From positions 76,322,001 to 76,386,000 of the forward strand of contig NC_091985.1 of assembly GCF_044704955.1 (NCBI RefSeq): DNA of 64,000 nucleotides, given 5' to 3'. Under the pieces are notes generated by a model, which saw nothing but the letters and a program-made list of their open reading frames with translations, had not been told where the DNA came from and ran no database searches. Position 1 is the stretch's first letter, and the number at the start of each line of letters is the position of its first letter. Below, one piece after another: positions 3,672-59,539 of the stretch. Origin of the DNA: Pristiophorus japonicus (taxonomy: Eukaryota). The position numbers and the translations under genes are program-made.

Positions 3672-4200
3672 AGGGGGCATGTGAAACGGAGGAGGACGTT
3701 CCATAGACCCTCGTGGTTGACAGTGTCAAAGGCCTTTGTAAGGTCGAAGAAGGCCATGTATAAGGGCTGGCGCTGTTCCCTACATTTTTCCTGTAGCTGT
3801 CGCGCTGCAAAGATCATGTCCATTGTGCCCAGTAGGGGACGAAATCTGCACTGTGACTCCAGGAGGAACTCCTCAGCCACGGGAAGAAGACGGTTGAAGA
3901 GGACTCTAGCGACGACTTTCCAGTGGCTGATAGCAGGGAGATTCCTCTGGAGTTGCCGCAGTTGGACTTGTCCCCTTTTTTAAAGATGGTCACAATTACT
4001 GCATCTTTAAGATCCCCTGGCATTCTCTCCTCCCTCCAAATGAGAGAGATGAGGTCGTACATTCGCGCCAGCAGTGCATTTCCGCCATACTTTAAATGCC
4101 TCAAGCAGGGATTCCATCCGCACCTGTAGCCTTGTTGTTTTTAAGCTGTCTTATGGCTTTTTTTACCTCGTGCAGGTCTTACTGAGGTGGTGGTAGGTAG
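3672..4200 (-). mobile_element. RTE-clade LINE, inverted RT N-terminal segment
   Basis: ORFs 3814..4104 and 3659..3880: IFKKGDKSNCGNSRGISLLS, ESQCRFR, QEKCREQRQPLYMAFFDLTKAFDTV. Confidence 0.85.
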
Positions 4201-4239
4201 CATGCTGTGGGATGGAGTCAAGAACACTCGAGTCAAAGG

Positions 4240-5530
4240 CACTGTCAACCGCAAGGGTCTATGGAGCGTTCTCCTCCGTTTTGGATGCCCCCAAAGGTTC
4301 GTCACCATCTTCTGTCTGCTCCACGACGACATGCAGACCATGATCCTTACCAACGGATCCATTACAGCCCCAATCCTCTTCTCAATCTTTCTAGCTGCCA
4401 TGCTCCACCTCACAGTCAACAAGCTCCCCGCTGGAGTGGAACTAAACTACAGAACCAGTGGGAACCTGTTCAACCTGCGCCGTCTCCAGGCCAGGTCCAA
4501 GACCGTCCCAACCTCTGTCGTCGAGCTACAGTACGCGGATGACGCCTGCATCTGCGCACATAGAGGCTGAACTCCAGGACATAGTCGATGTATTTACTGA
4601 GGCGTACGAAAGCATGGGCCTTACGTTAAACATCCGTAAGACAAAGGTCCTCCACCAGCCTGTCGTCACCACACAGCACTGCCCCCCAGTCATCAAGATC
4701 CACGACACGGCCCTGGACACCATGGACCACTTCCCATATCTCGGGAGCCTCCTATCAACAAGAGCAGGCATTGACGACAAAATCCAACACCACCTCCAGT
4801 GCACCAGTGCAGTCTTCGGCCACCTGAGGAAAAGAGTGTTTGAAGACCAGGCCCTCAAAACTGCCACAAAGTTCATGGTCTACAGGGCCGTAGTAATACT
4901 CGCCCTCCTGTATGGCTCAGAGACATGGATCATGTACAGTAGACACCTCAAGTTGCTGGAGAAATATCACCAATGATGTCGCCGCAAGATCCTACAAATC
5001 CCCTGGGAGGACAGGCATACCAACATCAGCGTCCTCATCCAGGCTAACATCCTCAGCATTGAAGCACTGACCACACTTGAGCAGCTCCACTGGGCAGGCC
5101 ACATAGTTCGCATGCCAGACATGAGACTCCCAAAGCAAGTGCTCTACTCGGAACTCCTTCACGGCAAACGAGCCAAAGGTGGGCAGCGGAAACGTTACAA
5201 GGACACCCTCAAAGCCTCCCTGATAAAGTGTGACAACCCCACTGACACCTGGGAGTCCCTGGCCAAAGACTGCCCTATGTGGAGGAAGTGCATCCGAGAG
5301 GGTGCTGAGCACCTCGAGTCTCAACACCGAGAGCATGCAGAAATCAAGCACAGGCAGCGGAAAGAGCGTGCGGAAAACCAGTCCCACCCACCCCTTCCCT
5401 CAACGCCTATCTGTCTCACCTGTGACAGAGTCTGTGGCTCTCGTATTGGATTGTTCAGTCACCAAAGAACTCACTTCAGGAGTGGAAGCAAGTCTTCCTC
5501 GATTCCGAGGGACTGCCTATGATGATGATG
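4240..5530 (+). mobile_element. RTE-clade LINE 3' part (RT + C-terminal zinc finger), degraded
   Basis: LQYADD, GLTLNIRKTKV, YLGS, CLTCDRVCGSRIGLFSHQRTH; 3' tail gggactgcctat(gat)n. Confidence 0.9.
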
Positions 5531-7172: not shown

Positions 7173-8445
7173 TCATCATCATAGGCAGTCCCTCGGAATC
7201 GAGGAAGACTTGCTTCCATTCCTGAAGTGAGTTCTTTGGTGACTGAACAGTCCAATACTAGAGCCACAGACTCTGTCACAGGTGGGACAGATAGTCATTG
7301 AGGGAAGGGGTGGGTGGGACTGGTTTGCCACACATTCTTTCCGCTGCCTGCGCTTGATTTCTGCATGCTCTTGGCGTTGAGACTCGAAGTACTCAGCGTC
7401 CCCCCGGATGCACTTTCTCCAATTACGGCAGTCTTTGGTCAGGGACTCCCAGGTGTCAGTGGGGATGTCGCACTTTATCAGGGAGGCTTTGAGGGTGTCC
7501 TTGTAACGTTTCCGCTGCCCACCTTTGGATCGTTTGCCGTGAAGGAGCTCCGCATAGAACACTTGCTTTGAGAGTCTCGTGTCTGGCATGTGAACTATGT
7601 GGCCTGCCCAGCGGAGCTGATCGAGTGTGGTCAGTGCTTCAATGCTGGGGATGTTGACCTGGATGAGGACACTGATGTTGGTACGCCTGTCCTCGCAGAG
7701 GATTTGTAGGATCTTGCGGAGACATCGTTGGTGATATATCTCCAGCGACTTGAGATGTCTACTGTACATGGTCCATGCCTCTGAGCCATACAGGAGGTTG
7801 GGTATTACTACAGTCCTGTCGACCATGAGCTTGGTAGTGGATTTGAGGGTCTGATCTTCGAACACTCTTTTCCTCAGGTGGCCGAAGACTGCATTGGTGC
7901 ACTGGAGGCGGTGTTGAATCTCCTCATCAATGTTTGCTTTTGTTGATAAGAGGCTACCAAGGTATGGGAAATGGTCCACGTTGTCGAGGGCCCACCATGG
8001 ATCTTGATGACTGGGTGGCAGTGCTGTGCAGCGAGGACAGGCTGGTGGAGGACCTTTGTCTTACGGATGTTTAGTGTAAGGCCCATACTTTCGTACGCCT
8101 CAGTACGCCTCAGTAAATACGTCAATTATATCCTGGAGTTCAGCCTCAGAATGTGCGCAGACGCTGGTGTTGTCCACATACTGTAGCTCAATGACAGAGG
8201 TTGGGGTGATCTTGGGCCTGGCCTGGAGGCGGCGAAGGTTAAACAGCTTCCCACTGGTCTGTAGTTTAGTTCCACTCCAGCGGGGAGCTTATTGACTGTG
8301 AGTTGGAGCATGGCAGCGAGGAAGATTGAGAAGAGAGTTGGAGTGATGACGCAGCCCTGTTTGACCCCGGTTCGGACGTGGATTGGGTCTGTAATGGATC
8401 CATTGGTAGGGATCACAGCCTGCATGTCATTGTGGAGCAGGCGAT
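7173..8445 (-). mobile_element. RTE-clade LINE 3' part
   Basis: ORFs 8126..8476 (GVKQGC), 7874..8125, 7179..7979 (266 aa, C2H2 end); same family as 4240-5530. Confidence 0.9.
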
Positions 8446-28890: not shown

Positions 28891-30598
28891 ATGGGGTCAG
28901 TGCTGGCAGTGGAGTGCTTCCTGCACATTGTGCGCGGCAGGGAGGCATGCAGGAGAAGGTGGCGCTGGCTCCAACAGCTTGAGAGGCAGCGGGCAAGGAA
29001 CACAGCACACATGGCTGAGGAAGATGCAGAGACAATGGAGATGGTGACAGAGCTGAACCCAGAGAGTTGCCTCAGGAAGGGCCTGCCATCAGGAGGAGGG
29101 TCAGGTACGCAGACCTCCCACACAACGTTTTGGCCCAGATGGAGAGGAGGAAGTATGCACAGGAGGCAGATGCTTGCCAGCAGCAGGCTGCAGAGGGTGA
29201 GGACCAACAAGAGCAGGAGGGAGAAGGCAATGAGGTAGCTGTCAGAGGAAGACGCCTACATAGACGTGGTGGCAGGAGGCCCTATCGTCAAAGGGTCTAC
29301 AGACAGCAGTTCTCCTACATGGACCTGATGGATGATGAGTGTCTCCAGAGACTGCGATTCCACAAGGACATCGTGCCTGAGCTGTGCAATCTCCTGCAGC
29401 CAGACCTGCAGCCTCAAACAAGGTTGAGGACAGCTCTGACCATCGCATCAAAGGTCACCATCGCCCTCAATTTCTATGCGACTGGATCTTTTCAAGCTGC
29501 AGACATCTCGAACATCTCCCAGTTCAACGTGCATAGCTCCATCTGTCAGGTGACAGATGCTCTGTATAAGAGGAGGAGGGACTACATATCCTTCCCCATG
29601 AGCAGGGAGAAGCAGTTGGAGCGGCAGACCGGATTTGTCAGGATTGCGGGTTTCCCCAGGGTTTAGGGCGCCATAGACTGCACCCACGTCGCATTGAGGG
29701 CGTCACAGAACAATTCCAAGATCCTCCATAACTGCAGGGGATTCCACTCTCCCAATGTCCAGCTGGTGTGTGACCACAACCACAAAACCATGGCAATTGA
29801 TGTCCGCTATCCTGGCAGCAGCCACGATGCTTTCGTCCTGCGCCAGACCGGTGCAACCAAGATTGCAGCTGGCTCCTTGGAGACAAGAGCTACCCACTAT
29901 GCACTTGGCTGCTGACTCCCCCTCACCACCCCAGGACTGCTGTGCAGCAAGCCTACAACTCTTTTTGAGGTAAACAAAAATTAAACATTAAATCAAGTCC
30001 CCCCCCCGATCTGGGGGGACACTCGAAACACTTTTCACGTGCCCTTTTTCTTGTTTTTTTGGTTTTTTGGGGTGATTTTTGGGCAGTAAAACCATAATTT
30101 ATAAGTGCCCCCTATAAAAGGGGAGGGGGACACTAAAAACCCGGCAATTAAAACAAATTGAACTTTAAAACATATAAAATCAAATTAAAATTTGCAGCAA
30201 GCCTACAATAACTTTCATTCATCACCAGGTGCATAATTGCGCAGGCCTTCGGAATACTTAAACAGAGGTTCCATTGCCTGGATCGCTCAAGAGAAATGTT
30301 GCAGTACTCGCCTGAGCAGGTCTCCCTATTTGTGGTTATTTGCTGCATGTTTCATAACCTGGCAATCATGACGGCACAACCATTGAAGGATGAGGCAGCA
30401 GTACCACCTGAGGTGGAGGACCAGGAGGAGGAGGCATAGGAGCATGACGCGCAGGAGGAGGAGGAGGAGGAGGAGGCACAGGAGGAGAACCAGAATGTGG
30501 GTCAGCAGTCACGTAGGAGGTGGCATCACTATCCAAACCCTGCAAATCCTAAACTCTCTCATTGCTGCTCGTTTCCGCCGAGTTCATGCGCACTTTAG
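28891..30598 (+). pseudogene. Harbinger (HARBI1-like) DDE transposase, disrupted
   Basis: RRPYRQRVYR..CLQRLRF..KVTIALNFYATGSFQ..AGFPRV*GAIDCTHV..YPGSSHDAFVL..WLLGDKSYP..FGILKQRFHCL..CCMFHNLA; stop at 29664, frameshifts, insertion 29959-30192. Confidence 0.9.
29959..30192 (-). mobile_element. 234-bp insertion with 16-bp TSD; probable 3' end of an L1/Tx1-clade retroelement (strand tentative)
   Basis: TSD tgcagcaagcctacaa at 29943-58 and 30193-208; two G/C hairpins; family assignment is inference. Confidence 0.55.
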
Positions 30599-33426: not shown

Positions 33427-36400
33427 ATATCAGTAAATAACATTTTAGCATTGTTGTTGCCAAATTAAGTTAATCTAAGGGTTAAGTCATGGCAGGAGAG
33501 CTCGGGCACGTGTTAAGCTCCTCCTGTGCTATGTGGGAAGTCAGGGACGCTTCCAGTGTCCCTGACGACTACATGTGCTGGAAGTGCATCGGCCTGCAGC
33601 ACCTGACAGACCGCGTTGCAGCACTGGAGCTGCGGGTGGATTTACTATGGAGCATCCGCGATGCTAAGGATGCCGTGAATAACACGTTTAGTGAGTTGGT
33701 CACACCACAGGTAAAGGTAACACAGACAGATAGGGAATGGGTGACCAACAGGAAGAGCAGTGGAAGGAAGGTAGTGCAGGGGTCCCCTGCAGTCAGCCCC
33801 CGGCAAAACAGATACACCGCTTTGGGTACTGTTGAGCAGGAATACTCATCAGGGGAGAGCAGCAGCAGCCAAGTTCATGGCACCGTGGGTGGCTCTGCTG
33901 CACAGGAGGGCAAGAAAAAGAGTGGGAGAGCTATAGTGGTAGTGATTCTATTGTAAGGGGAATAGATAGGTGTTTTTGAAGCCGCAAACGAGACTGGAGG
34001 ATGGTATGTTGCCTCTCTGGTGCAAGGGTCAAGGATGTCTCGGAGTGGGTGCAGGACATTTTGAAGAGGGAGGGTGAACAGCCAGTTGTCGTGGTGCATA
34101 TAGGTACAACGATATAGGTAAAAAATGGGATGAGGTCCTACAAGACGAATTTAGGGAGCGAGGAGCTAAATTAAAAAGTAGGACCTCAAAAGTAGTAATC
34201 TCAGGATTGCTACCAGTGCCATGTGCTAGTCAGAGTGGGAATTGCAGGATAGCTCAGATGAATATGTGGCTTGAGGAGTGGTGCAGAAGGGGGGGATTCA
34301 AATTCCTGGCACATTGGAACCGGTTCTGGGGGAGGTGGGACCAGTACAAAACGTTTGGTCTGCACCTGGGCAGGACCGGAACCAATGTCTGAGGGGGAGT
34401 GTTTGTTAGTGCTGTTGGTGAGGGGTTAAACTCATATGGCAGTGGAATGGGAACCGATGCAGGGAGACAGAGGGAAGTAGAATGGGGGCAGAAGCAAAAG
34501 ATAGAAAGAAGAAAAGTAAAAGTGGAGGACAGAGAAACCCAAGGCAAAAATCAAAAAGGGTCACATTAGAGCAAAATTCAAAAGGGGCAAAGTGTGTTAA
34601 AAAGACAAGCCTAAAGGCTCTGTGCCTCAAAGCGAGAAGTATTCGGAATAAGGTCGACGAATTTACTGCGCAGATAGCAGTTAACAGATATGATGTAATT
34701 AGCATCACGGAGACATAGCTCCAGGGTGACCAAGGCTGGGAACTCAACATCCAGGGGTATTCAACATTTAGGAAGGATAGACAGAAAGGAAAAGGAGGTG
34801 GGGTGGCGTTGCTGGTTAAAGAAGAAATTAATGCAATAGTAAGGAAGGATGATGTGGAATCGGTATGGGTGGAGCTACGGAATACCAAAGGGCAGAAAAC
34901 GCTAGGGGGAGTTGTGTACAGATCACCAAACAGTAGTAGTGAGGCTGGGGACAGCATCAAACAAGAAATTAGGGATGTGTGCAATAAAGGTACAGCAGTT
35001 ATCATGGGCGACTTTAATCTACATATTGATTGGGCTAACCAAACTGGTAGCAATGCGGTGGAGGAGGATTTCCTGGAGTGCATTAGAGATGTTTTCTAGA
35101 CCAATATGTCGAGGAACCAACTAGAGGGCTGGCCATCCTAGCCTGGGTGATGTGTAATGAGAAAGGACTAATTAGCAATCTTGTTGTGCGTGGCCCCTTG
35201 GGGAAGAGTGACCATAATATGGTAGAATTCTTTATTAAGATGCAGAGTTACACAGTTAATTCAGAGACTAGGGTCCTGAACTTAAGGAAAGGTAATTTCG
35301 ATGGTATGAAATGTGAATTGACTAGAATAGACTGGCGAGTGATACTTAAAGGGTTGACGGTGGAGAGGCAATGGCAAACATTCAAAGGTCACATGGATGA
35401 ACTTCAACAATTGTACATGCCTGTCTGGAGTAAAAATAAAACGGGGAAGGTGGCTCAACCGTGGCTAACAAGGGAAATTAAGGATAGTGTTAAATCCAAG
35501 GAAGAGGCATATAAATTGGCCAGAAAAAGCAGCAAACCTGAGGACAGGGAGAATTTTGTAATACAGCAGAGGAGGACAAAGGGTTTAATTAGGAGGGAGA
35601 AAATAGAGTATGAGAGGAAGCTTGCTGGGAACATAAAAACTGACTGCAAAAGCTTCTACAGATATGTGAAGAGAAAAAGATTAGTGAAAACAAACGTAGA
35701 TCCCTTGCAGTCAGATTCAGGTGAATTTATAATGGGGAACAAAGAAATGGCGGACCAGTTAAACAAATACTTTGGTTCTGTCTTCATGAAGGAAGACACA
35801 AATAACCTTCCGGAAATACTACTGAACCGAGGGTCTAGTGAGAAGGAGGAACTGAAGGAAATTCTTATTCAGCAAGAAATTGTGTGAGGGAAATTGATGG
35901 GATTGAAGGCCGATAAATCCCCAGGGCCTGATAGTCTGTATCCCAGAGTATTAAGGAAGTAGCCCTAGAAATAGTGGATGCCTTGGTGATCATTTTCCAA
36001 CAGTCTATCGACTCTGGATCGGTTCCTATGGATTGGAGGGTAGCCTGACATCAGTAGTGGGCAAAATGTTGGAATCAATGATTAAAGATGAAATAGCAGC
36101 ACATTTGGAAAGCAGTGACGGAATCGGTCCAAGTCAGCATGGATTTATGAAAGGGAAATCTTGCTTGACAAATCTTTTGAGGATGTAACTGGTAGAGTGG
36201 ACAAGGGAGAACCAGTGGATGTGGTGCATTTGGACTTTCAACAGGCTTTTGACAAGGTCCCACACAAGAGATTGGTGTGCAAAATTAAAGCACATGGTAT
36301 TGGGGGTAATGTACTGACGTGGATGGAGAACTGGTTGGCAGACAGGAAGCAGAGAGTCGGGATAAACGGGTCCTTTTCAGAATGGCAGGCAGTGACTAGT

Positions 36401-38013: not shown

Positions 38014-39401
38014 TGATATGTCCTTACTATCGCAAAGAGGTCCTCTGCTCTCGGAAGCGGGTACTGGTCTTGGAGTAATACTCGATTGATGGTGGCCTTG
38101 TAATCGCCACATATCCTGACCGACCCATCCGTCTTGAGCACCGACACAATCGGGCTCACCCAGTCACTGAATTCGACTGGCGAGATGATGCCTTCCCTCA
38201 GCAGGCAGTCCAATTCGCATTCTATCTTTTCCCGCATCACGTACGACACCGTTCTGGCCTTGTGGTGTACTGGCCTGGTGTCCGGTTTATGTGAATCACT
38301 ACCTTGGCCCCCATGAAAGTGCCGATGCCAGGTTGAAATAATGAGTCAAATTTGTCCAGCATGATACTCGCTCCACAGAAGAAATTGCATTGACATCGTC
38401 CCATTTCCAGTTCATGACAGCAAGCCAACTCCGCCCCAGTAGTGCGGGACCATCCCCCGGGACAATCCAGAGTGGCAACCTGCTCTCCGAATCGTTGTGG
38501 GTCACGACTACCATGGCGCTGCCTAGCACCGGAATGATCTCCTTTGTATATGTCCATAGCTGTGCATCAATGAGCCAAGATTTTTGTCATACATCATTCT
38601 GGTCTCTTCCTCCCCTGAGATAAATGTCTGGTCTATCAGAGCCACCACTTCCAAGATCAAGCCTTTGGTCTCAATCAGTTTCCTGAAAACCCCAGTGTGC
38701 TTGATGCCCTCAATAAAAAAGCTTCGCAGCATCTCCGCTCTGCATGCATCTGGGAACTTACATAGGCTCGCCAGTCGCCGGAGATCTGCCACGAAGTCTG
38801 GAACACTTTGCCCTTCTCGCTGCCGGTGCGTGTTAAACCTGTGTCTCGCCATGTCATGCTGCTTGCCGGTTTAAGGTGTTCCCCGATCAACTTAATGAGC
38901 TCTTCAAATGACTTGTCCGCCGGCTTCTCTGGCGCTAGAAGGTCCTTCATCAGGGAGTACGTTCTGGATCCACAAACCGTCAAGAGATGAGCCCTGCGTT
39001 TGTCAGCCGAATCCTGTCCCAACCATTCCTTCGTGACAAAACTTTGCTGTCGTCTCTCAATAAAGTCATCCCAATCATCACCAACACAGTACCTCTCGCC
39101 TGTGCTGCTAGTGGCCATGCTCACATGGTTTAAATCCCAGTTTCTCGTCGCCAATGATATGCCCTTACTATACAGTATAAATGCACATAAGGCCCATATT
39201 TGAGAGAAGGTCACTCTGTGATCAGTAACCTTTATTACCAAGACCTCAGGTGATGAAGGTTGGTGAAGCTTCCCCTTTTATACCTGAAAAGCCCAGGTTA
39301 GGAGTGTCTCCCACAAGTGCACCCCTTGTGGTCAATGTTCTCAAAATGTACAACTTAGGTCAGTTTATACATGGGTTACAATGATAGTTGAATACATAAC
39401 A
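38014..39401 (-). mobile_element. Internally deleted Ty3/Gypsy (Mag-like) LTR element
   Basis: 5' LTR 39155-39401 (TG..CA), PBS tggcgacgag, gag/PR/RT-start fragments, last 17 bp of the 3' LTR at 38014-30, TSD aacac on both sides. Confidence 0.9.
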
Positions 39402-43846: not shown

Positions 43847-46800
43847 TGATACGTCCTTACTATACAGTATAAATGCACACAAGGACCATGCTTGAGAGAA
43901 GGTCAGCCTGTAACCTATCCTTTATTCCATAGCACTCAAGTGATGAAGGTGGGTGAAGCTTCCCCTTTTATACCTGAAGGTCCAGGTTAGGAGTGTCTCC
44001 CAAAAGTTCACCACCTAGTGGTCATTGTTCTCACAGTGTACAAATTGTCAGTTTATACATGGGTTACAATGATGGTTGAATACATGACATCACCTCCGCC
44101 CCCCAAAGTCTTATTGGGATCATAGTTGAGTCTCTTTGGTGGTTTATGCTTTCTTGTAGAGCGCCTGAGTTGGGGCTCCGGTTGTTGGGCGCTGGCCTGA
44201 GTGTCTGCTGTTTGCGGTGCCTCAGGCCTGTCCGGACTTCCCACAGTGACTGAGCTCTCCTCCCTTTGGTTCCGTTGTTCGGTCACCTGTGGTGGAGTGA
44301 ACTTTATATCTTGTTCTTCCTCTGCTTCTTCTACGGGGTTGCTGAACCTCCTTTTTGCTTGATCCAAGTGTTTGCGGCAGATTTGTCCATTGGTAAGTTT
44401 AACTACCAGAATCCTATTCCCCTCTTTTGCAATCAAAGTGCCTGCGAGCCATTTGGGCCCTGCAGTGTAGTTGAGAACAAAGACAGGATCATTGACATCA
44501 ATACATCGCGCCCTCGCATTCCTGTCATGGTAGTCACATTGTGACTGGCGCCTGCTCTCGACAATTTCTTTCATGGTGGGGTGTATAAGGGATAACCTGG
44601 TTTTGAGCATCCTTTTCATTAGCAGCTCTGCGGGTGGAACCCCTGTGAAAGAGTGTGGTCGGGATCTGTAGGCCAACAGGAAGCGTGATAAGCGGCTTTG
44701 TAGGGAACCCCCTTGGATTCTGAGCCTCCCCTGTTTGATTATCTGCACTGCTCGTTCTGACTGGCCATTTGAGGAAGGCTTGAACGGTGCCGTTCTGACT
44801 TGGTTAATTCCATTGCCTGCCATGAAGTCCTGGAATTCAGTACTTGTGAAGCACGGGCAATTGTCGCTGACCAAGATATCCGGTAGACCATGGGCGGCGA
44901 ACATTGCCCGTAGACTTTTTACCGTGGCAGAGGATGTGCTTGAATTGAGAATGTCACACTCGATCCATTTGGAGTAGGCGTCTACGACAATCAAAAACAT
45001 TTTTCCCATGAAAGGACCTGCGTAGTCCACATGGATGCGTCACCAAGGCTTGGCGGACCAAGACCAGGAGCTAAGGGGGGCTTCCCTGGGTGCATTGTCC
45101 AGCTGGGCACATGTGTTGCACCTGCGAACACAAAGTTCCAGATCTGTGTCTATCCCTGGCCACCAAACGTGTGACCTGGCAATTGCCTTCATTATGACAA
45201 TGCCCGGGTGCTCATTGTGGAGTTCTCTGATGAACACCTCTCTGCCCATCTGGGGCATGATAAAAACAGAGAGACAGACTATTATCTGAATGGTGACAGA
45301 TTAGGAAAAGGGGAGGTGCAACGAGACCTGGGTGTCATGGTACATCAGTCATTGAAGGTTGGCATGCAGGTACAGCTGGCGGTTGAGAAAGCAAATGGCA
45401 TGTTGGCCTTCATAGCGAGGGGATTTGAGTACAGGGCAGGGAGGTATTGCTACAGTTGTACAGGGCCTTGGTGAGACCACACCTGGAGTATTGTGTACAG
45501 TTTTGGTCTCCTAACCTGAGGAAGGACATTCTTGCTATTGAGGGAGTGCAGCGAAGGTTCACCAGACTGATTCCCGGATGGCGGGACTGACATATCAAGA
45601 AAGATTGGATCAACTGGGCTTGTATTCACTGGAGTTCAGAAGAATGAGAGGGGATCTCATAGAAACGTTTAAAATTCTGACGGGTTTAGACAGGTTAGAT
45701 GCAGGAAGAATGTTCCCAATGTTGGGGAAGTCCAGAACCAGGGGTCACAGTCTAAGGATAAGGGGTAAGCCATTTAGGACTGAGATGAGGAGAAACTTCT
45801 TCACCCAGAGAGTGGTGAACCTGTGGAATTCTCTACCACAGAAAGTTGTTGAGGCCAATTCACTAAATATATTCAAAAAGGAGTTAAATATAGTCCTTAC
45901 TACTAGGGGGATCAAGGGGTATGGCGAGAAAGCAGGAATGGGGTACTGAGGTTGCATGTTCAGCCATGAACTCATTGAATGGTGGTGCAGGCTCGAAGGG
46001 CCGAATGGCCTACTCCTGCACCTATTTTCTGTTTCTATGTTTCTATGACTACGCGGTTTCCCCACAGTAGGCAATCGGCCTGAATCGAGTGTTCATCCCT
46101 GCACCTGTGAAATGGTTTAAATTCCTCAGGACATGCCCCGTACATGGCTGCCCAGTCCCCATTCAGGACACATTTCTTGACTAAAGACAATAGCGGGTCT
46201 CTATTTGGCCAGACTTTAATCTGACGGGCTGTCACGGGTGAGCCTTTGCCTCCGAAAGCTTCAACAGCCATGACAATCTCAGCAGCATGCTCGGTTGCCC
46301 CCTCAGTGGTGGCTAGTGGGAGCCTGCTGACTGCATCGGCGCAGTTTTCGGTGCCTGGTCTGTGCCGAATTGTATAGTCATAGGCAGCTAACGTGAGTGC
46401 CCACCTCTGTATGCGGGCCGATGCATTTGCATTTATGGCCATGTTGTCGGCCAAAAGGGACGTTAGGGGTTTGTGATCTGTCTCCAGCTCAAATTTCCTG
46501 CCAAACAGGTACTGGTGCATTTTCTTTACCGCATATACACATGCAAGCGCCTCCTTTTCAACCATCCCGTAGCCCCTTTCTGCCTGGGACAGACTTCTGG
46601 AGGCATAAGCTACCGGCTGTAACTGACCCTTGGCATTAACATGCTGCAACACACACCCGACACCATAGGATGACGCATCGCACGTTAACACAAGTTTCTT
46701 ACTTGGGTCATATAGCGTTAACAGATTGTTGGAACATAACAAATTGCATGCTGTATTAAAAGCCCTTTCCTGGCTGTCCCCCGAGACCCATTCACGACCT

Positions 46801-48759
46801 TTGCGTAGGAGCACGTGTAGCTCAATTTGGGAAGAAAGTTACCAAAATAGTTCAGCAGCCCCGGGAACGAACGCAGCTCTGTCGTGTTACGGGGTCTGGA
46901 TGCTCGCTGGATCACTTCTGTCTTGGACGCAGTAGGGCTGATCCCGTCTGCTGCTACCCTCATCCCCAGGAATTCTATCTCTGGAGCTAGGAAGACGCAC
47001 TTCGCCTTTTTCAGTTGCAGCCCTACCCGGTCCAGTCTGTGTAGCACCTCCTCCAGGTTGTGGAGGTGTTCTTCAGTATAGCAACCCGTGATGAGGATGT
47101 CGTCTTGAAAAACCACCGTCCCTGGAACCGACTTGAGGAGGCTTTCCATATTTCGTTGGGAGATCGCGGCGGCAGAGCGAATCCCGAACGGACATCTGTT
47201 GTACTCAAACAACCCCTTGTGTGTCGTGATGGTGGTCAGCTTCTTCGACTCACTCGCCAGCTCCTGGGTCATGTAAGCTGAGGTCAGGTCCAATTTTGAA
47301 AAATGTTTGTCACCGGATAGCGTTGCAAAGAGGTCCTCCGCTCTCGGTAGCGGGTACTGGTCTTGGAGTGACACCTGATTGATGGTGGCCTTGTAATCAC
47401 CACATATCCTGACCGACCCATCCGCCTTGAGCACCGGCACAATCGGGCTCGCCCAGTCACTGAATTCGACTGGCGAGATGATGCCTTCCCTCAGCAGGCG
47501 GTCCAATTCGCCTTCTATCTTTTCCCGCATCACGTACGGCACCGCTCTGGTCTTGTGGTGTACTGGCCTGGCGTGCGGGTTTATGTGAATCGCTGCCTTG
47601 GTCCCCATGAAAGTGCCAATGCCGGGTTTAAACAGTGAGTCAAATTTGTCCAGGATCTGTGAGCATGATACTCGCTCCACGGAGGAAATTGCATTGACAT
47701 CGCCCCATTTCCAGTTCATGACAGCAAGCCAACTCCTCCCCAGTAGTGCAGGACCATCCCCCGGGACAATCCAGAGTGGCAACCTGTTCTCCGAACCTTT
47801 GTGGGTCACGACTACCGTGGCGCTGCCGAGCACCGGAATGATCTCCTTTGTGTAAGTCCGTAGCTGTGCGTCAATCGCCGATAATTTTGGCCTCCTGGCT
47901 TTGGACGCCCACAACTTTTCGAACTGTTTGATACTTATCAGAGGCTGGCTGGCCCCGTGTCTAGCTCCATTGATACTGGGATGCCATTGAGGAGCACTTT
48001 CATCATTATCGGTGACGTCCTGGTGTATGAACTGTATACGTGCTCCACATGAACTCGCTGAACTTCAGCTTCCAGCGATTTCTCCCAGCATTCATTTCTG
48101 CAATTTCTGCAGATATTTTGCTCATCTCTGCAAATTCCGGCTGAGTGTGTGCCTTCACACTTCCAACATGAGCTGTTGTTGGAAACAAAAGGCCCCTTGC
48201 CAGTCGATCGTCTCTGACTGCCTCTGTGACTGTCCTTAAGTGCGCCATTAACAGGTGTTGATGGCCCCATTACTGGTCGCATTGTCCCTTGCAATGGCGT
48301 GAATCGCCATTCAGCTTGCCATTGTCTCTGTCGAACTCTCCCTCTGGGCTCGACTACATGTTGGGGCATGCCCAATTGACCTTGTCTACCTGGAGAACTG
48401 TGTGCAGCTTTAACAATGTTGATTCTCAGTCCCAACCATTCCTTAACACAGTACCTCTCATCTGTTCTGCTAGTGGCCATACCCGCGTGGTTTAAATCCC
48501 AGTTTCTCGTCGCCATTGATACGTCCTTACTATACAGTATAAATGCACACGAGGCCCATGTTTGAGAGAAGGTCACTCTGTGACCTGTCCTTTATTCCAT
48601 AGCACTCAAGTGATGAAGGTGGGTGGAGCTTCCCTTTTTATACCTGAAGGTCCAGGTTAGGAGTGTCTCCCAAAAGTTCACCACCTAGTGGTCATTGTTC
48701 TCACAGTGTACAACTTGTCAGTTTATACATGGGTTACAATGCTGGTTGAATACATGACA
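43847..48759 (-). mobile_element. Ty3/Gypsy (Mag-like) LTR retrotransposon, two LTRs, degraded gag-pol
   Basis: LTRs 48517-48759 and 43847-44089; TSD atccc; PBS tggcgacgag (matches tRNA-Ser(GCU) 3' end as recalled); PPT ggggggcggagg; PR (ELDTG), RT (VFQDD), RNase H (CDASSYGVG, TDHKPL), IN (HPG, DYAGP, VSDN, SNGQSER). Confidence 0.95.
45261..46044 (+). mobile_element. 5'-truncated CR1 inserted into Gypsy pol
   Basis: Near-identical to 53157-53945; atga duplicated at 45257-60 and 46045-48. Confidence 0.9.
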
Positions 48760-50404
48760 ATCCCGACTCTCTGTTTTCTGTTAGTTAGCCTCTATCCATG
48801 CTAACATATTACCCCCAACCCCGTGAACTTTTATCTTGTGCAGTAACCTTTTATGTGGCACCTTGTCAAATGCCTTCTGGAAGTCCAAATACACCACATC
48901 CACTGGTTCCCCTTTATCCACCCTGTTCGTTACATTCTCAAAGAATTCCAGCAAATTTGTCAAACATGACTTCCCCTTCATATATCCATGCTGACTCTGC
49001 CTGACTGAATTTTGCTTTTCCAAATGTCCTGCTACTGCTTGTTTAATAACGGACTCCAACATTTTCCCAACCACAGATGTGAAGCTAACTGGTCTATAGT
49101 TTCCTGCTTTTTGTCTGCCTCCTTTTTTTAAATAGCGGCGCTACATTTGCAGTTTTCCAATCTGCTGGGACCTCCCCAGAATCCAGGGAATTCTGGTAAA
49201 TTATAACCAAGCATTACAGAATCTGGATTAGGTCTGCAAGAACTTATAATGCATCTTAACAGCATTTCACCATAAGCTTGTTGCTGGATCACCAAGGGAC
49301 AACGCACAACACTCTGCGCCAACTGCTCATTCTAAATATCCAGTCATGACCATCATTTTTCCAGGGAGCTCTGCTTTGCTGGTAGGACAAGGCATTTATC
49401 GATGGTCCATTGAATGAGGTAAGCCACCAATGCCGAGCACATTAGCCACACCAGACATCTGCAAGCTGCATGTTCACATGCTCACATAGGTGGCTGCTGG
49501 CCTGGGCACTTGGATCAAAGACACCTCTCGTTTTCCTTCTAACAACATGTCTTTTTTCTATGTGAGTTTAACATTTAACTGGCACCAGTGCCCATAGGCA
49601 GAAGCTTTGTCTGATTGTGAAGAGAGGGCCATGCCTATTCTGGTATGGAGTGGGGGAAGGTGATCAAGCTCATGGCTAGTATCACACTTTACTTTTCATG
49701 CCTTATCTTCTTATTCACTCATTCATTTTCTCCTACACACACAGACATATATTGTAGCCAAATGTACCTCATTATATCACTCGTCATATTTTGTCCTTGG
49801 GAGACTCACTGTGGTAAACAGCTATAACTCTGGCACAAAGGGGCCGAAAATGCCCCTCCCGATAAAGCCTCTGGCCACCTGAAAACGGTGGCCATGGGAC
49901 AGTGCGGAATGGTCACCGACTCTCCACGGATGGGCCACCATTTTGTAAATTGCCCTTCGTGAATTTAGGAGCGGTGCCCGGGACCGCTCCGCCCATTTTC
50001 CCACCGCAACATGCACGCGCCAACCCCTTACCAATTGGCGGGGACCCCCTCATGAAATTGCCCCTCGGGAAATTGCCCCTTTCCTGGTATGTCCCCGTGG
50101 GAGCATGCCCGCCACAGGTCGGTGCCCCCGACAGCTTTTTGTGTCAGTGCACTCTCTATAGCATGGCGGCTCGGCTGCCTTTAAAGGAGAGGGCACACTG
50201 CCGCGGCAACCATGTTATATTTTTTGTCAGCTCACTGCCAGGTCTGCCCAACAATTATGCCCCCGGGATCAGCCGGGCCGCCAACAGGTAGCCTGGCACC
50301 CCCTCTTAGGTGCCAGGCCACTGGCTCAACCAAAACCCTCCTTGGTGGCCCAGTGGACTTAATTTTAAATTATGCAGTGCTCGCAGCGGCCCTCCCCTTT
50401 AACT

Positions 50405-53400
50405 GCGGCCGCAACCGTGACTCCAGGATGGTATGTTGCCTCCCTGGTGCAAGGGTCAAGGATGTCTCGGAGCGGGTGGAGGACATTCTAAAAAGGGAGG
50501 GAGAACAGCCAGTTGTCGTGGTGCACGTTGGTACCAATGACATAGGTAAAAAAAGGGATGAGTTCCTACGAAATGAATTTAAGGAGCTAGGAGCTAAATT
50601 AAAAAGTAGGACCTCAAAAGTAGTAATCTCGGGATTGCTACCAGTGCCACGTGCTAGTCAGAGTAGGAATCGCAGGATAGCTCAGATGAATACGTGGCTT
50701 GAGCAATGGTGCAGCAGGGAGGGATTCAAATTCCTGGGGCATTGGAACCGGTTCTGGGGGAGGTGGGACCAGTACAATCCGGACGGTCTGCACCTGGGCA
50801 GAATCGGAACCAATGTCCTCGGGGGAGTGTTTGCTAGTGCTGTTGGGGAGGAGTTAAACTAATATGGCAGGGGGATGGGAACCAATGCAGGGAGATAGAG
50901 GGAAACAAAAAGGAGGCAAAAACAAAAGACAGAAAGGAGATGAGGAAAAGTGGAGGGCAGAGAAACCCAAGGCAAAGAACAAAAAGGGCCATTGTACAGC
51001 AAAATTCTAAAAGGACAGAGGGTGTTAAAAAAACAAGCCTAAAGGCTTTGTGTCTTAATGCAAGGAGTATCCGCAATAAGGTGGATGAATTAACTGTGCA
51101 AATAGATGTTAACAAATATGATGTGATTGGGATTACGGAGACGTGGCTCCAGGATGAGCAGGGCTGGGAACTCAACATCCAGGGGTATTCAACATTCAGG
51201 AAGGATAGAATAAAAGGAAAAGGAGGTGGGGTAGCATTGCTGGTTAAGGAGGAGATTAAGGCAATAGTTAGGAAGGACATTAGCTTGGATGATGTGGAAT
51301 CTATATGGGTAGAGCTGCAGAACACCAAAGGGCAAAAAACGTTAGTGGGAGTTGTGTACAGACCTCCAAACAGTAGTAGTGATGTTGGGGAGGGCATCAA
51401 ACAGGAAATTAGGGGTGCGTGCAATAAAGGTGCAGCAGTTATAATGGGTGACTTTAATATGCACATAGATTGGGCTAACCAAACTGGAAGCAATACGGTG
51501 GAGGAGGATTTTCTGGAGTGCATAAGGGATGGTTTTTTAGACCAATATGTCGAGGAACCAACTAGGGGGGAGGCCATCTTAGACTGGGTGTTATGTAATG
51601 AGAAAGGATTAATTAGCAATCTCGTTGTGCGAGGCCCCTTGGGGAAGAGTGACCATAATATGGTGGAATTCTGCATTAGGATGGAGAATGAAACAGTTAA
51701 TTCAGAGACCATGGTCCAGAACTTAAAGAAGGCTAACTTTGAAGGTATGAGGCGTGAATTGGCTGAGATGGATTGGCGAATGATACTTAAGGGGTTGACT
51801 GTGGATGGGCAATGGCAGACATTTAGAGACCGCATGGATGAACTACAACAATTGTACATTCCTGTCTGGCATAGAAATAAAAAAGGGAAGGTGGCTCAAC
51901 CGTGGCTATCAAGGGAAATCAGGGATAGTATTAAAGCCAAGGAAGTGGCATACAAATTGGCCAGAAATAGCAGCGAACCTGGGGACTGGGAGAAATTTAG
52001 AACTCAGCAGAGGAGGACAAAGGGTTTGATTAGGGCAGGGAAAATGGAGTATGAGAAGAAGCTTGCAGGGAACATTAAGACGGATTGCAAAAGTTTCTAT
52101 AGATATGTAAAGAGAAAAAGGTTAGTAAAGACAAACGTAGGTCCCCTGCAGTCAGAATCAGGGGAAGTCATAACGGGGAACAAAGAAATGGCGGACCAAT
52201 TGAACAAGTACTTTGGTTCGGTATTCACGAAGGAGGACACGAACAACCTTCCGGTTATAAAAGGGGTCGGGGGGTCTAGTAAGGAGGAGGAACTGAGGGA
52301 AATCCTTATTAGCCGGGAAATTGTGTTGGGGAAATTGATGGGATTGAAGGCCGATAAATCCCCAGGGCCTGATGGACTGCATCCCAGAGTACTTAAGGAG
52401 GTGGCCTTGGAAATAGTGGATGCGTTGACAGTCATTTTCCAACATTCCATTGACTCTGGATCAGTTCCTATGGAGTGGAGGGTAGCCAATGTAACCCCAC
52501 TTTTTAAAAAAGGAGGGAGAGAGAAAACAGGGAATTATAGACCGGTCAGCCTGACATCGGTAGTGGGTAAAATGATGGAATCAATTATTAAGGATGTCAT
52601 AGCAGTGCATTTGGAAAGAGGTGACATGATAGGTCCAAGTCAGCATGGATTTGTGAAAGGGAAATCATGCTTGACAAATCTTCTGGAATTTTTTGAGGAT
52701 GTTTCCAGTAGAGTGGATAAGGGAGAACCAGTTGATGTGGTATATTTGGACTTTCAGAAGGCGTTCGACAAGGTCCCACACAAGAGATTGATGTGCAAAG
52801 TTAGAGCACATGGGATTGGGGGTAGTGTACTGACATGGATTGAGAACTGGTTGTCAGACAGGAAGCAAAGAGTAGGAGTAAATGGGTACTTTTCAGAATG
52901 GCAGGCAGTGACTAGTGGGGTACCGCAGGGTTCTGTGCTGGGGCCCCAGCTGTTTACACTGTACATTAATGATTTAGATGAGGGGATTGAGTGTAGTATC
53001 TCCAAGTTTGCGGATGACACTAAGTTGGGTGGCAGTGTGAGCTGCGAGGAGGATGCTGTGAGGCTGCAGAGCGACTTGGATAGGTTAGGTGAGTGGGCAA
53101 ATGCATGGCAGATGAAGTATAATGTGGATAAATGTGAGGTTATCCACTTTGGTGGTAAAAACAGAGAGACAGACTATTATCTGAATGGTGACAGATTAGG
53201 AAAAGGGGAGGTGCAAAGAGACCTGGGTGTCATGGTACATCAGTCATTGAAGGTTGGCATGCAGGTGCAGCAGGCGGTTAAGAAAGCAAATGGCATGTTG
53301 GCCTTCATAGCAAGGGGATTTGAGTACAGGGGCAGGGAGGTGTTGCTACAGTTGTACAGGGCATTGGTGAGGCCACACCTGGAGTATTGTGTACAGTTTT

Positions 53401-53945
53401 GGTCTCCTAACCTGAGGAAGGACATTCTTGCTATTGAGGGAGTGCAGCGAAGGTTCACCAGACTGATTCCCGGGATGGCGGGACTGACCTATCAAGAAAG
53501 ACTGGATCAACTGGGCTTGTATTCACTGGAGTTCAGAAGAATGAGAGGGGACCTCATAGAAACATATAAAATTCTGACGGGGTTAGACAGGTTAGATGCA
53601 GGAAGAATGTTCCCAATGTTGGGGAAGTCCAGAACCAGGGGTCACAGTCTAAGGATAAGGGGTAAGCCATTTAGGACCGAGATGCGGAGGAACTTCTTCA
53701 CCCAGAGAGTGGTGAACCTGTGGAATTCTCTACCACAGAAAGTTGTTGAGGCCAATTCACTAAATATATTCAAAAAGGAGTTAGATGAGGTCCTTACTGC
53801 TAGGGGGATCAAGGGGTATGGCGAGAAAGCAGGAATGGGGTACTGAAGTTGAATGTTCAGCCATGAACTCATTGAATGGCGGTGCAGGCTAGAAGGGCCG
53901 AATGGCCTACTCCTGCACCTATTTTCTATGTTTCTATGTTTCTAT
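50405..53945 (+). mobile_element. Young CR1 LINE, 5'-truncated within ORF1
   Basis: ORF1 esterase C-half (HVGTND, DGLHL) to stop at 50862; intact ORF2; (tttctatg)3 tail. Confidence 0.95.
50940..53846 (+). CDS. CR1 ORF2: APE endonuclease + reverse transcriptase, uninterrupted 968 aa (frame open from upstream of the ORF1 stop)
   Basis: NARS, ITETW, GGGVAL, YRPP, GDFN, SDHN, PGPDG, LDFQKAFDKV, GVPQGS, FADD motifs. Confidence 0.92.
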   Translation: MRKSGGQRNPRQRTKRAIVQQNSKRTEGVKKTSLKALCLNARSIRNKVDELTVQIDVNKYDVIGITETWLQDEQGWELNIQGYSTFRKDRIKGKGGGVALLVKEEIKAIVRKDISLDDVESIWVELQNTKGQKTLVGVVYRPPNSSSDVGEGIKQEIRGACNKGAAVIMGDFNMHIDWANQTGSNTVEEDFLECIRDGFLDQYVEEPTRGEAILDWVLCNEKGLISNLVVRGPLGKSDHNMVEFCIRMENETVNSETMVQNLKKANFEGMRRELAEMDWRMILKGLTVDGQWQTFRDRMDELQQLYIPVWHRNKKGKVAQPWLSREIRDSIKAKEVAYKLARNSSEPGDWEKFRTQQRRTKGLIRAGKMEYEKKLAGNIKTDCKSFYRYVKRKRLVKTNVGPLQSESGEVITGNKEMADQLNKYFGSVFTKEDTNNLPVIKGVGGSSKEEELREILISREIVLGKLMGLKADKSPGPDGLHPRVLKEVALEIVDALTVIFQHSIDSGSVPMEWRVANVTPLFKKGGREKTGNYRPVSLTSVVGKMMESIIKDVIAVHLERGDMIGPSQHGFVKGKSCLTNLLEFFEDVSSRVDKGEPVDVVYLDFQKAFDKVPHKRLMCKVRAHGIGGSVLTWIENWLSDRKQRVGVNGYFSEWQAVTSGVPQGSVLGPQLFTLYINDLDEGIECSISKFADDTKLGGSVSCEEDAVRLQSDLDRLGEWANAWQMKYNVDKCEVIHFGGKNRETDYYLNGDRLGKGEVQRDLGVMVHQSLKVGMQVQQAVKKANGMLAFIARGFEYRGREVLLQLYRALVRPHLEYCVQFWSPNLRKDILAIEGVQRRFTRLIPGMAGLTYQERLDQLGLYSLEFRRMRGDLIETYKILTGLDRLDAGRMFPMLGKSRTRGHSLRIRGKPFRTEMRRNFFTQRVVNLWNSLPQKVVEANSLNIFKKELDEVLTARGIKGYGEKAGMGY

Positions 53946-54219
53946 GAAGGGGAGAGCCATTGTGACGCGCCAGCGTGACGTGACACGTCTGCGTCACGTT
54001 GACATCATCAGCGCGGCACTGATGACTAGTCAGGGCGGCGGATCCACTGCAAGGGCACTTCCACCCCTCAGCCGCCACGACTTCCACCCCGAGCCAAAAA
54101 AATTCTAAGTGCCAAATCTCGCCGGCATCTCCGCCGCATAGGTTGCGGCGGAGAAAAACTTCAAAAAATGGAGGGTACGCCCCTTTTCAGGCGGAGGGCA
54201 GTTTCTACCCACAAGTCTT

Positions 54220-57432: not shown

Positions 57433-59539
57433 CCATTTTATTTTTACTCCAGACAGGGATGTACAATTGCTGAAGTTCATCCATGTGATCCTTAAATGTT
57501 TGCCATTGCTTATCCACCATCAACCCTTTAAGTATCCTTTGCCAGTCTATTCTAGCCAATTCGCGCCTCATACCATCAAAGTTACCTTTCCTTAAGTTCA
57601 GGACCCTAGTTTCTGAATTAACTGTGTCACTCTACATCTTAATAAAGAATTCTACCATATTATGGTCACTCTTCCCCAAGGGACCTCGCACAACAAGATT
57701 GTTAATTAGTCCTTTCTCATTACACATCACCCAGTCTAGGATGGCCAGCTCTCTAGTTGGTTCCTCGACATATTGGTCTAGAAAACCTAATGCACTCCAG
57801 GAAATCCTCCTCCACCGCATTGCTACCAGTTTGGTTAGCCCAATCAATATGTAGATTAAAGTCGCCCATGATAACTGCTGTACCTTTATTGCACACATCC
57901 CTAATTTCTTGTTTGATGCTGTCCCCAACCTCACGACTACTGTTTGGTGGTCTGTACACAACTCTCACTCGCGTTTTCTGCCCTTTGGAATTCCGCAGCT
58001 CCACCCATACCGATTCCACATCATCCAGGCTAATGTCCCTCCTTATTATTGCATTAATTTCCTCTTTAACCAGCAATGCCACCCCGCCTCCTTTTCCTTT
58101 CTGTCTATCCTTCCTAAATGCTGAATACCCGTGGATATTGAGTTCCCAGCCTTGGTCACCCTGGAGCCATGTCTCCGTGATGCCAATTACATCATACCCG
58201 TTAACTGCTATCTGCGCAGATAATTCGTCCACCTTATTCCGAATACTCCTCGCATAAAGGCACAGAGCCTTCAGGCTTGTCTTTTTAACACACTTTGCCC
58301 CTTTAGAATTTTGCTGTAATGTGGCTCTTTTTATTTTTTGCCTTGGGTTTCTCTGCCCTCCGCTTTTACTTTTCTCCTTTCTATCTTTTGCTTCTGTCTC
58401 CATTTTATTTCTCTCTGTCTCCCTGCATAGGTTCCCATCCCCCTGCCATATTAGTTTAACTCCTCTCCAAGAGCACTAGCAAACACTCCCCCTTGGACAT
58501 TAGTTCTGGTCCTGCTCAGGTGCAGACCATCCGGTTTGTACTGGTCCCACCTCCTCCAGAACCGATTCCAATGCCCCAGGAATTTGAATCCCTCCCTTCT
58601 GCACCACTGCTCAAGCCACGTATTCATCTGAGCTATCCTGCGATTCCTACTCTGACTAGCACATGGCACTGGTAACAATCCTGAGATTACTACTTTTGAG
58701 GTTCTACTTTTTAATTTAAGTCCTAGCTCCCTAAATTCGTCTCGTAGGACCTCATCCAGTTTTTTACCTATATCGTTGGTACCTATATGCACCCCGACAA
58801 CTGACTGTTCACTCTCGCTTTTCAGAATATCCTGCACCCGCTCCGGGACATCCTTGACCCTTGCACCAGGGAGGCAACATACCATTCTGGAGTCTCGCTT
58901 GTGGCCGCAAAAACGCCTATCTATTCCCCTTACAATTGAATCCCCTATCACTATCGCTCTCCCTCTCTTTTTCCTGCCCTCCTGTGCAGTAGAGCCAGCC
59001 ACGGTGCCATGAACTTGGCTGCTGCTGCTCTCCCCTGATGAGTCATCCCCCTCAACAGTACTCAAAGCGGTGTATCTGTTTTGCAGAGGGATGACCGCAG
59101 GGGATCCCTGCACTACCTTCCTTGCACTGCTCTTCCTGTTGGTCTTCCATTCCCTACCTGGCTGTGGACCCTTTACCTGCGGTAAGACCAACTCACTAAA
59201 TGTGCTATTCACATCATTCTCAGCATCGTGCATGCTCCAGAGTGAATCCACCCACAGCTCCAGTTCCGTAATGCAGTCCGTCAGGAGCTGCAGGCGGATA
59301 CACTTCCCACATGGTACACGAGGAGCATAACACGTGTCCGAGCTGTCCTGCCATGACTTAACCCTTAGATAAATTTAAATTGGCAACAACAATGCTAAAT
59401 GTTACTTACTGATATAGAAAAGAAAAAAGAAAAGCTACTTACCAATCACCAGCCAATCACTTACCCCCTTGACTGTGATGTCACCTTTTGATTTCTTTCT
59501 ACTTCTTTTTTGACACCCTGCTGCAGCTGCACTGGTAGG

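Follow-up and report, generated by a model that had tools for sequence, protein, structure and literature searches.

We analyzed a CR1-type long interspersed nuclear element (LINE) in the 5.9 Gb genome of Pristiophorus japonicus, where it lies in a stretch of 64,000 nucleotides (assembly GCF_044704955.1, contig NC_091985.1, positions 76,322,001 to 76,386,000 of the forward strand; hereafter the window, with positions counted from its first letter) and where a junction joins both open reading frames (ORF1 and ORF2) of the element. We consider it probable that programmed -1 ribosomal frameshifting at the heptamer N_UUA_AAC yields a predicted fusion of the two encoded proteins, ORF1p and ORF2p. 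The layout of the junction is conserved at the DNA level, the linker that follows is open in the -1 frame, and no conserved AUG stands upstream in ORF2, some sub-families having none at all. As judged from sequence, the junction carries a deeply conserved recoding-type signal that we have not found described for CR1. A conserved -1 site would bear on ORF2 translation for a whole vertebrate clade, and this step is described as unclear in two-ORF LINEs (PMC3708506, PMC5009743; here and below, papers are cited for the portions of their text that were accessible). If the frameshift occurs, the endonuclease and reverse transcriptase of CR1 are made as an esterase-bearing fusion, the annotated starts of CR1 ORF2 are wrong, and tens of thousands of sites in one genome carry a recoding signal of retroviral type that seems to lack the usual RNA structure.

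Layout of the junction

The first-pass annotation had read the end of ORF1 as GAG TTA AAC TAA, with the heptamer GTTAAAC at 50853-59 and a -1 frame open from there into ORF2. The sequence agrees on both points: 27 codons, starting with L-I-W-Q, precede the first ATG (50940), and the -1 frame as a whole is open from stop to stop over 1002 codons (50838-53846), overlapping ORF1 only from 50838. The heptamer follows the pattern X_XXY_YYZ in the zero-frame register, being U_UUA_AAC in most lineages and G_UUA_AAC here, the exceptional form of the equine arteritis virus type, and the long open -1 frame that starts at it encodes the endonuclease and reverse transcriptase. The features of the element and of two older copies in the window are as follows.

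50403 to 50862, + strand: 3' half of CR1 ORF1, ending E-E-L-N-stop; copy 5'-truncated at 50403 (Pfam and alignment with relatives)
50838 to 53846, + strand: ORF2 frame, -1 relative to ORF1, with basic linker, AP-endonuclease and reverse transcriptase (Pfam)
50853 to 50859, + strand: candidate -1 slippery heptamer G_TTA_AAC, in most relatives T_TTA_AAC (sequence and conservation across lineages)
50860 to 50862, + strand: ORF1 stop TAA adjoining the heptamer, in other lineages TAG or TGA (sequence)
50864 to 51010, + strand: 48-codon dead-end frame headed by a +1-frame ATG one base past the stop, at 50864-66 (sequence)
50870 to 50879, + strand: G-rich motif GGGGG-NN-GGG, candidate 3' stimulator, 11 nt past the heptamer (lineage alignment)
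50940 to 50942, + strand: first in-frame ORF2 ATG, codon 29 from the heptamer, at a position that varies between sub-families (sequence comparison)
53923 to 53946, + strand: 3' tail, made up of three TTTCTATG units (sequence)
34425 to 34434, + strand: same heptamer in an older copy, where the ORF1 stop has become TCA by decay and ORF2 has its first ATG at codon 19
58451 to 58460, - strand: same heptamer with TAA in an older copy; first ORF2 ATG at codon 19

The two older copies had also been noted previously, and their heptamers are indeed present at 34425-31 (+) and 58460-54 (-). The first ORF2 ATG is not homologous between copies, as had been claimed, since it falls at codon 29 (50940) in the main copy versus codon 19 in the two older ones. 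A second in-frame ATG follows at 51444, within the I-M-G-D-F motif of the endonuclease. The +1-frame ATG at 50864-66 had been overlooked; its frame stops short of ORF2. GTTAAACT occurs five times in the window against 1.54 expected, and three of these occurrences are the CR1 junctions, the others lying at 44396 and 49565.

According to the proposed mechanism, ribosomes decoding UUA AAC would undergo a tandem slip of tRNA-Leu and tRNA-Asn to NUU/AAA, which would hide the ORF1 stop; CUA would be decoded next, giving a junction of about L-N/L-I-W-Q. A minority of ribosomes would slip and make the fusion, and most would terminate and release ORF1p, such that the slip would set a high ORF1p:ORF2p ratio, like that of gag/gag-pol in retroviruses. 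The predicted full-length product has about 1,310 residues, 315 from the first Met of the L033 ORF1 plus 995. The G-rich motif 11 nt downstream may stimulate the slip, and slow termination at the adjacent stop possibly helps.

The element itself is an ordinary CR1. ORF1 contains an SGNH/GDSL esterase domain (Pfam PF13472, E=1.8e-12 in the window copy), and its profile matches the ZfL2-1 ORF1 esterase 4C1B (E=4e-44); ORF2 contains AP-endonuclease and reverse transcriptase domains (Pfam PF03372, PF14529 and PF00078). With canonical vertebrate CR1 (type IVB, PMC4120745; survey PMC13343379) it shares an ORF1 with zinc-finger-like N-terminus and SGNH esterase, an AP-endonuclease/reverse transcriptase ORF2 and a short tandem 3' tail. 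The traits of esterase-type CR1 seen here are this tail (TTTCTATG x3), 5' truncation and high copy number. The closest named relatives of ORF1 are shark proteins (84-86% identity). The assignment to CR1 and not L2 is a match of the junction, by eye, to published CR1-labelled consensuses, and not a reverse transcriptase tree. The description of the window copy as intact was not borne out, because it starts about half-way through ORF1: three relatives whose ORF1 frames are complete (316 codons) match it at 99.5-99.8% identity, but only from 50403 onward. Being 5'-truncated, it cannot itself make the full fusion.

Conservation within the genome and across vertebrates

A 28-base anchor just 5' of the junction has 29,932 exact matches in the genome, and a shorter anchor followed by GTTAAACTAA has 27,900; copies of one family are alike by descent, so these counts show abundance and not selection. 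A motif-blind sample was taken from 60 stretches of 10 kb (600 kb) chosen by place alone, in which ORF1 ends were located with a profile lacking the Leu-Asn columns. TTA AAC followed by a stop was present in 10 of the 11 junctions found in this way, preceded by G in five and by T in five. The sampled junctions represent three families: A, to which the window copy belongs, B, whose ORF1 resembles P0055 and is 39% identical to that of family A, and C. Of 30 family B loci, 26 could be read (21 T_TTA_AAC TAA, 2 A_TTA_AAC, 2 T_TTA_AAT and 1 with lost stop), the site being changed or deleted in 4 and TTA AAC being present in 23 of the 30. For family C, 24 of 30 were readable (16 T_TTA_AAC TAG, 5 T_TTA_AAT TAG, 1 C_TTA_AAC and 2 with lost stop). 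The usual variant, TTA AAT (5/30 in family C, 2/30 in family B), still fits X_XXY_YYZ.

Some of these copies have a complex structure. L005, L008, L015 and L028, in which a family A junction is followed by a break of ORF2 at the endonuclease start and then by a B-like linker and a second endonuclease start, are nested or chimeric CR1 copies; in L212 and L213 a family C junction is followed by a B-like endonuclease start. The post-stop G-run of family B (L127-L156) is very variable in length, so that in individual old copies the ORF1/ORF2 phase appears scrambled. Between 36 kb and 3.1 Mb of contig C1, junctions (L001-L030) occur as opposite-strand pairs about 5.5-6.4 kb apart with identical variants, a pattern suggestive of an extensive segmental or tandem repeat where this contig begins.

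At the protein level, a DGLH-type motif was readable in 91 of the 120 ORF1 relatives listed out of 140 matches, and 87 of these end within 32 residues. The C-terminus is Leu-Asn in 81 of the 87 readable ends, in most cases 26 residues on from where the motif begins, and the residue preceding it varies over 11 amino acids. (The invariance of Leu-Asn in alignment A1 is circular, its 43 rows having been chosen by hand, and was not used.) The named sources of these relatives include sharks, rays, coelacanth, frogs, turtles, lizards and one snake. Three ray-type proteins that cross the site in the -1 frame, being frameshifted copies, read F-K-L, as T_TTA_AAC_T predicts. A search for longer fused ORF1 proteins gave three matches. 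One of them, a gene model from a ray in which ORF1 runs into the endonuclease via F-K-L, was considered as an active in-frame family and rejected, as it is a mutated copy.

At the DNA level, nine amniote-type metagenome loci span the site, seven with TTTAAAC, one with TTTAAAA and one decayed, and in a tenth the junction is deleted; 24 of 45 loci were examined, the remaining 21 looking, from their identity and contig size, like distant SGNH hydrolases from bacteria. Published consensuses of canonical CR1 share the TTTAAAC-stop junction in crocodilians (alligator, crocodile), bullfrog, chimaera, ray (stingray) and sharks (catshark, dogfish) (PMC13343379); these were found by motif search in the visible parts of the source and give presence, not frequency. 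When contigs from other organisms were mapped in four runs, T stood at 50853 in nearly all of the depth, no change was listed at 50854-62 or 50870-74, and many matches ended near 50883, such mapping favouring conserved blocks. The viral contigs searched held no relative, and the prokaryote genomes searched held one short contig that ends before the junction. Vertebrate CR1 ORF1 sequence was also seen in bacterial-labelled records (P0007, a Pseudomonas aeruginosa protein, and L106, a Providencia contig), which are probably host contamination.

In an ungapped alignment of seven lineage representatives, only TTAAACT, the G at +11 to +15 (7/7) and a single additional G never vary. Between distant lineages, 14-27 of the final 60 positions of ORF1 are identical; the related pairs among the seven are A and C (42/60) and L065 and L069 (47/60). 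TTA accounts for 14 of 97 Leu codons and AAC for 22 of 49 Asn codons in the window copy, and in L065 for 4 of 60 and 15 of 21, respectively. The heptamer is thus kept at synonymous sites across lineages, these not being independent, and the fixation of a minority Leu codon at the junction argues for a constraint on the RNA.

Start of ORF2 and alternatives to frameshifting

Where could translation of ORF2 start if not by a slip? Neither a conserved ORF2 ATG nor frequent stops in the intervening -1 frame, which had been named earlier as evidence that would speak against frameshifting, were found. The first in-frame Met lies at codon 4, 19, 22, 29 or 43, or is absent before the endonuclease. A -1-frame stop is located 1-28 codons 5' of the heptamer across lineages (5 in family A), hence the two frames overlap only around the heptamer and ORF2 cannot start far back within ORF1. 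Linkers of 33, 51, 57, 62, 65 and 84 codons all place the endonuclease in the -1 frame and are stop-free. This openness is seen in 28 of 30 near-identical family A copies, in the majority readings of B, C and a sub-family of A, and in the readable copies L062, L065 and L074. The probabilities obtained by shuffling that a linker lacks stops, 0.01-0.52 in ten copies and 1.0 in another in which only one codon was tested, were not used as statistics, since the copies had been chosen open.

Some sub-families have no AUG before the endonuclease domain at all. In the sub-family of A (51 exact matches on 15 contigs) the first majority Met is codon 197, in the I-M-G-D-F motif; the search pattern excluded the ATG at codon 19 by construction, but not the ATG at codon 29 or linked marker changes. 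In family C (1,618 matches) the first 121 majority codons include no Met; past them the majority reading loses frame at an internal G-run, and of the nine copies open for at least 100 codons, five lack a Met in that stretch. The amniote-type locus L074 has no in-frame Met before the start of the endonuclease.

Several points weigh against a programmed frameshift. The first heptamer base of family A is G in 81, T in 16 and A in 3 of the first 100 matches listed, counted by eye, and G at this position means less perfect re-pairing in the P site; the G form looks derived in family A of this genome, because relatives have T there. A protein-level test for T at this base gave P=0.037, 0.13 and 0.087 at three levels of de-replication. 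No 3' fold is conserved (z from -3.8 to +1.6 over 12 junctions, below -2 in one of them), and just 2 of the 12 have four G3 tracts within 60 nt. The representatives used for folding, linkers and alignment were picked by heptamer pattern and readability, the lineages compared are not independent, and the G-run of family C was part of its search pattern. L062 has an in-frame ATG two bases past the stop, and the catshark consensus has an in-frame TAATG, a stop-start like that of SART1 (PMC13343379). TAATG also accounts for most depth in two of the four runs with contigs of other organisms, its row not being listed in a narrower mapping. Finally, translation of ORF2 in mammalian L1 is believed to begin without dependence on the ORF2 AUG (PMC5009743), hence a missing AUG alone is no proof of fusion.

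These starts beside the stop speak for termination at the ORF1 stop followed by reinitiation at or near it in the -1 frame, using an AUG where there is one and an AUG-independent start elsewhere. The product would be a separate ORF2p, and the heptamer and G-run would serve as a coupling signal. Both known routes, the UAAUG coupling of SART1 (PMC3708506) and the AUG-independent start of L1 (PMC5009743), are ways in which other two-ORF LINEs express ORF2, and reinitiation likewise predicts an open linker. Yet neither route needs a slippery heptamer, and an exact X_XXY_YYZ heptamer in the register of ORF1, with ORF2 always in the -1 frame, is left unexplained by reinitiation. The UAAUG of SART1 is present in some shark CR1s, but in this genome the AUG beside the stop, in strong context, is out of frame (TAATAT form) in 32,716 of 33,398 matches and in-frame TAATG accounts for only 682 (about 2%); the window copy reads TAATA, so that its stop overlaps no in-frame AUG. 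A 7-base deletion in the linker, which brings the post-stop +1 ATG into the frame of ORF2, is rare, with 10 exact matches, 6 of them in one local block. In most lineages the codon overlapping the stop is CUA, a poor start codon. We therefore regard reinitiation as unlikely. At the level of sequence, the earlier inference that the fusion is made by frameshifting and not by reinitiation is supported by the open -1 linker, the lack of a conserved ATG and the kept heptamer and stop.

The copies with the 7-base deletion were recorded at L007, L009, L013, L020, L026 and L257-L266 (contig C1, 0.75-2.9 Mb, and four other places), and L263 is open for 543 codons from its post-stop ATG.

Frameshifting also has to be compared with a constraint on the protein alone, by which Leu-Asn is kept for the function of ORF1p, the slippery appearance is a by-product and ORF2 starts at its first AUG. 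Leu-Asn-stop is the most constant protein end, and in many sub-families an AUG does follow at a distance of 19-43 codons. Yet synonymous codons are unused although TTA is a minority Leu codon; moreover, the G-run beyond the stop is kept at the wobble positions of four amino acids, and the sub-families that lack an AUG before the endonuclease exist. The alignment of the crystallized zebrafish L2 esterase (4C1B, 171 residues) reaches only as far as position 317 in a profile of 321 and leaves two residues over, which indicates that the esterase folds without the aligned Leu-Asn end. Such a constraint is in our view a very improbable account of the junction.

An RNA-processing signal, which could be a splice acceptor or branch point or else a poly(A) signal that is weak and has a G-rich element downstream, with ORF2 translated from the processed RNA, can be dismissed almost entirely. 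UUUAAA resembles a poly(A)-signal variant, and junctions ending in TAG resemble a splice acceptor. But several lineages have TAA or TGA as the stop and hence no AG, family A has G as its first heptamer base, the sequence upstream is purine-rich, the four contig runs (which are only guessed to be RNA) listed no joint spanning the site, and the fixed -1 phase is left unexplained.

Candidate stimulator and known systems

The G-runs that had been pointed out 3' of the heptamer are present at 50870-74, 50877-79, 50890-92 and 50900-02. As a stimulator they fared unevenly in the comparison: the first two runs are kept and their spacing is constant, but neither a stable hairpin nor a four-tract G-quadruplex is conserved. 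The run of five G occurs 11 nt beyond the heptamer in the DNA junctions of seven divergent lineages, and the motif is found in published crocodilian and catshark consensuses as well (PMC13343379). The family B run starts earlier, at +9, and includes +11 to +15 all the same. Depending on the lineage, its first G (+9 to +11) is the wobble base of CAG, AAG, TCG or CCG; conservation at the wobble position of four different amino acids points to a constraint on the RNA rather than on the peptide.

Folding covered 12 junctions with a model of local structure, pseudoknots and long-range pairs lying outside it. The window copy has a hairpin of -7.4 kcal/mol (z -2.7 to -3.8), and the copy at 34425 gave z -0.15. 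The best ViennaRNA fold contains a G-quadruplex in 5 of the 12 junctions, the window copy not being among them. Both a hairpin and a four-tract G-quadruplex were rejected as the universal stimulator, as neither is conserved over the 12 junctions.

By inference only, a G-motif bound by a protein is the lead candidate for the stimulator. A wider hypothesis can be offered tentatively, and we would not expect it to hold in full: that a single CR1 -1 frameshift cassette has existed since early jawed vertebrates, stimulated by a protein-bound G-rich site 11 nt downstream and not by an RNA fold. The protein may be a host binder of G-runs or ORF1p itself. [quoted passage not shown]

The -1 sites of nidoviruses and retroviruses use a downstream pseudoknot or stem-loop. 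The CR1 junction differs from these sites in having no conserved 3' structure and in meeting a zero-frame stop at once. It has the same heptamers, in the same register and at the end of the upstream ORF, as equine arteritis virus (G_UUA_AAC) and infectious bronchitis virus (U_UUA_AAC); U_UUA_AAC ranks with the heptamers most prone to shifting, and the exception is G_UU(A), the form of equine arteritis virus (PMC5009743). In PRRSV, the nsp2 -2/-1 frameshift is trans-activated by nsp1-beta plus PCBP, which bind a C-rich motif 11 nt past the shift site where there is no obvious structure (PMC4937337). The PRRSV motif differs from that of CR1 in being C-rich and not G-rich, in its shift site and in its viral partner protein (PMC4937337).

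Among LINEs, -1 frameshifting has a precedent in TRE5-A of Dictyostelium. ORF2 of TRE5-A and TRE3-A, which are non-LTR (long terminal repeat) retrotransposons of the APE type, is stated to need a -1 frameshift (PMC5911963). They share with CR1 the two-ORF non-LTR layout with ORF2 in the -1 frame, but belong to another clade and another host kingdom and have no esterase ORF1; the passage concerned names no slippery site or stimulator (PMC5911963). In the accessible main text of PMC4120745 and PMC13343379 frameshifting is not mentioned and ORF2 translation is not addressed. The word slippery is absent from the accessible text of PMC13343379, and frameshift is absent from the covered portion of its supplement. 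The accessible part of PMC3905857 does not mention frameshifting, that of PMC5009743 does not name CR1, and the frameshift passages seen in PMC11835228 concern avian leukosis virus (ALV). Full-text literature searches found no report of a CR1 frameshift, the 1997 papers on chicken and turtle CR1 and the Repbase notes lying outside their coverage.

Other repeats in the window were recognized by eye. Gypsy-like LTR pieces (protease, reverse transcriptase, RNase H and integrase-like) are located on the - strand at 44053-48591, where a CR1 3' fragment (about 45436-46024) interrupts them, and at 38675-39277. RTE/BovB-like LINE 3' fragments with a C-terminal zinc-finger-like motif lie at 4145-5522 (+) and 7179-8060 (-). 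A 215-codon frame at 29019-29666 (+) resembles the N-terminus of a Harbinger/PIF-type transposase. The segment 27700-28590 is a tandem repeat array with long open frames rich in Pro, His and Ser in all three minus frames.

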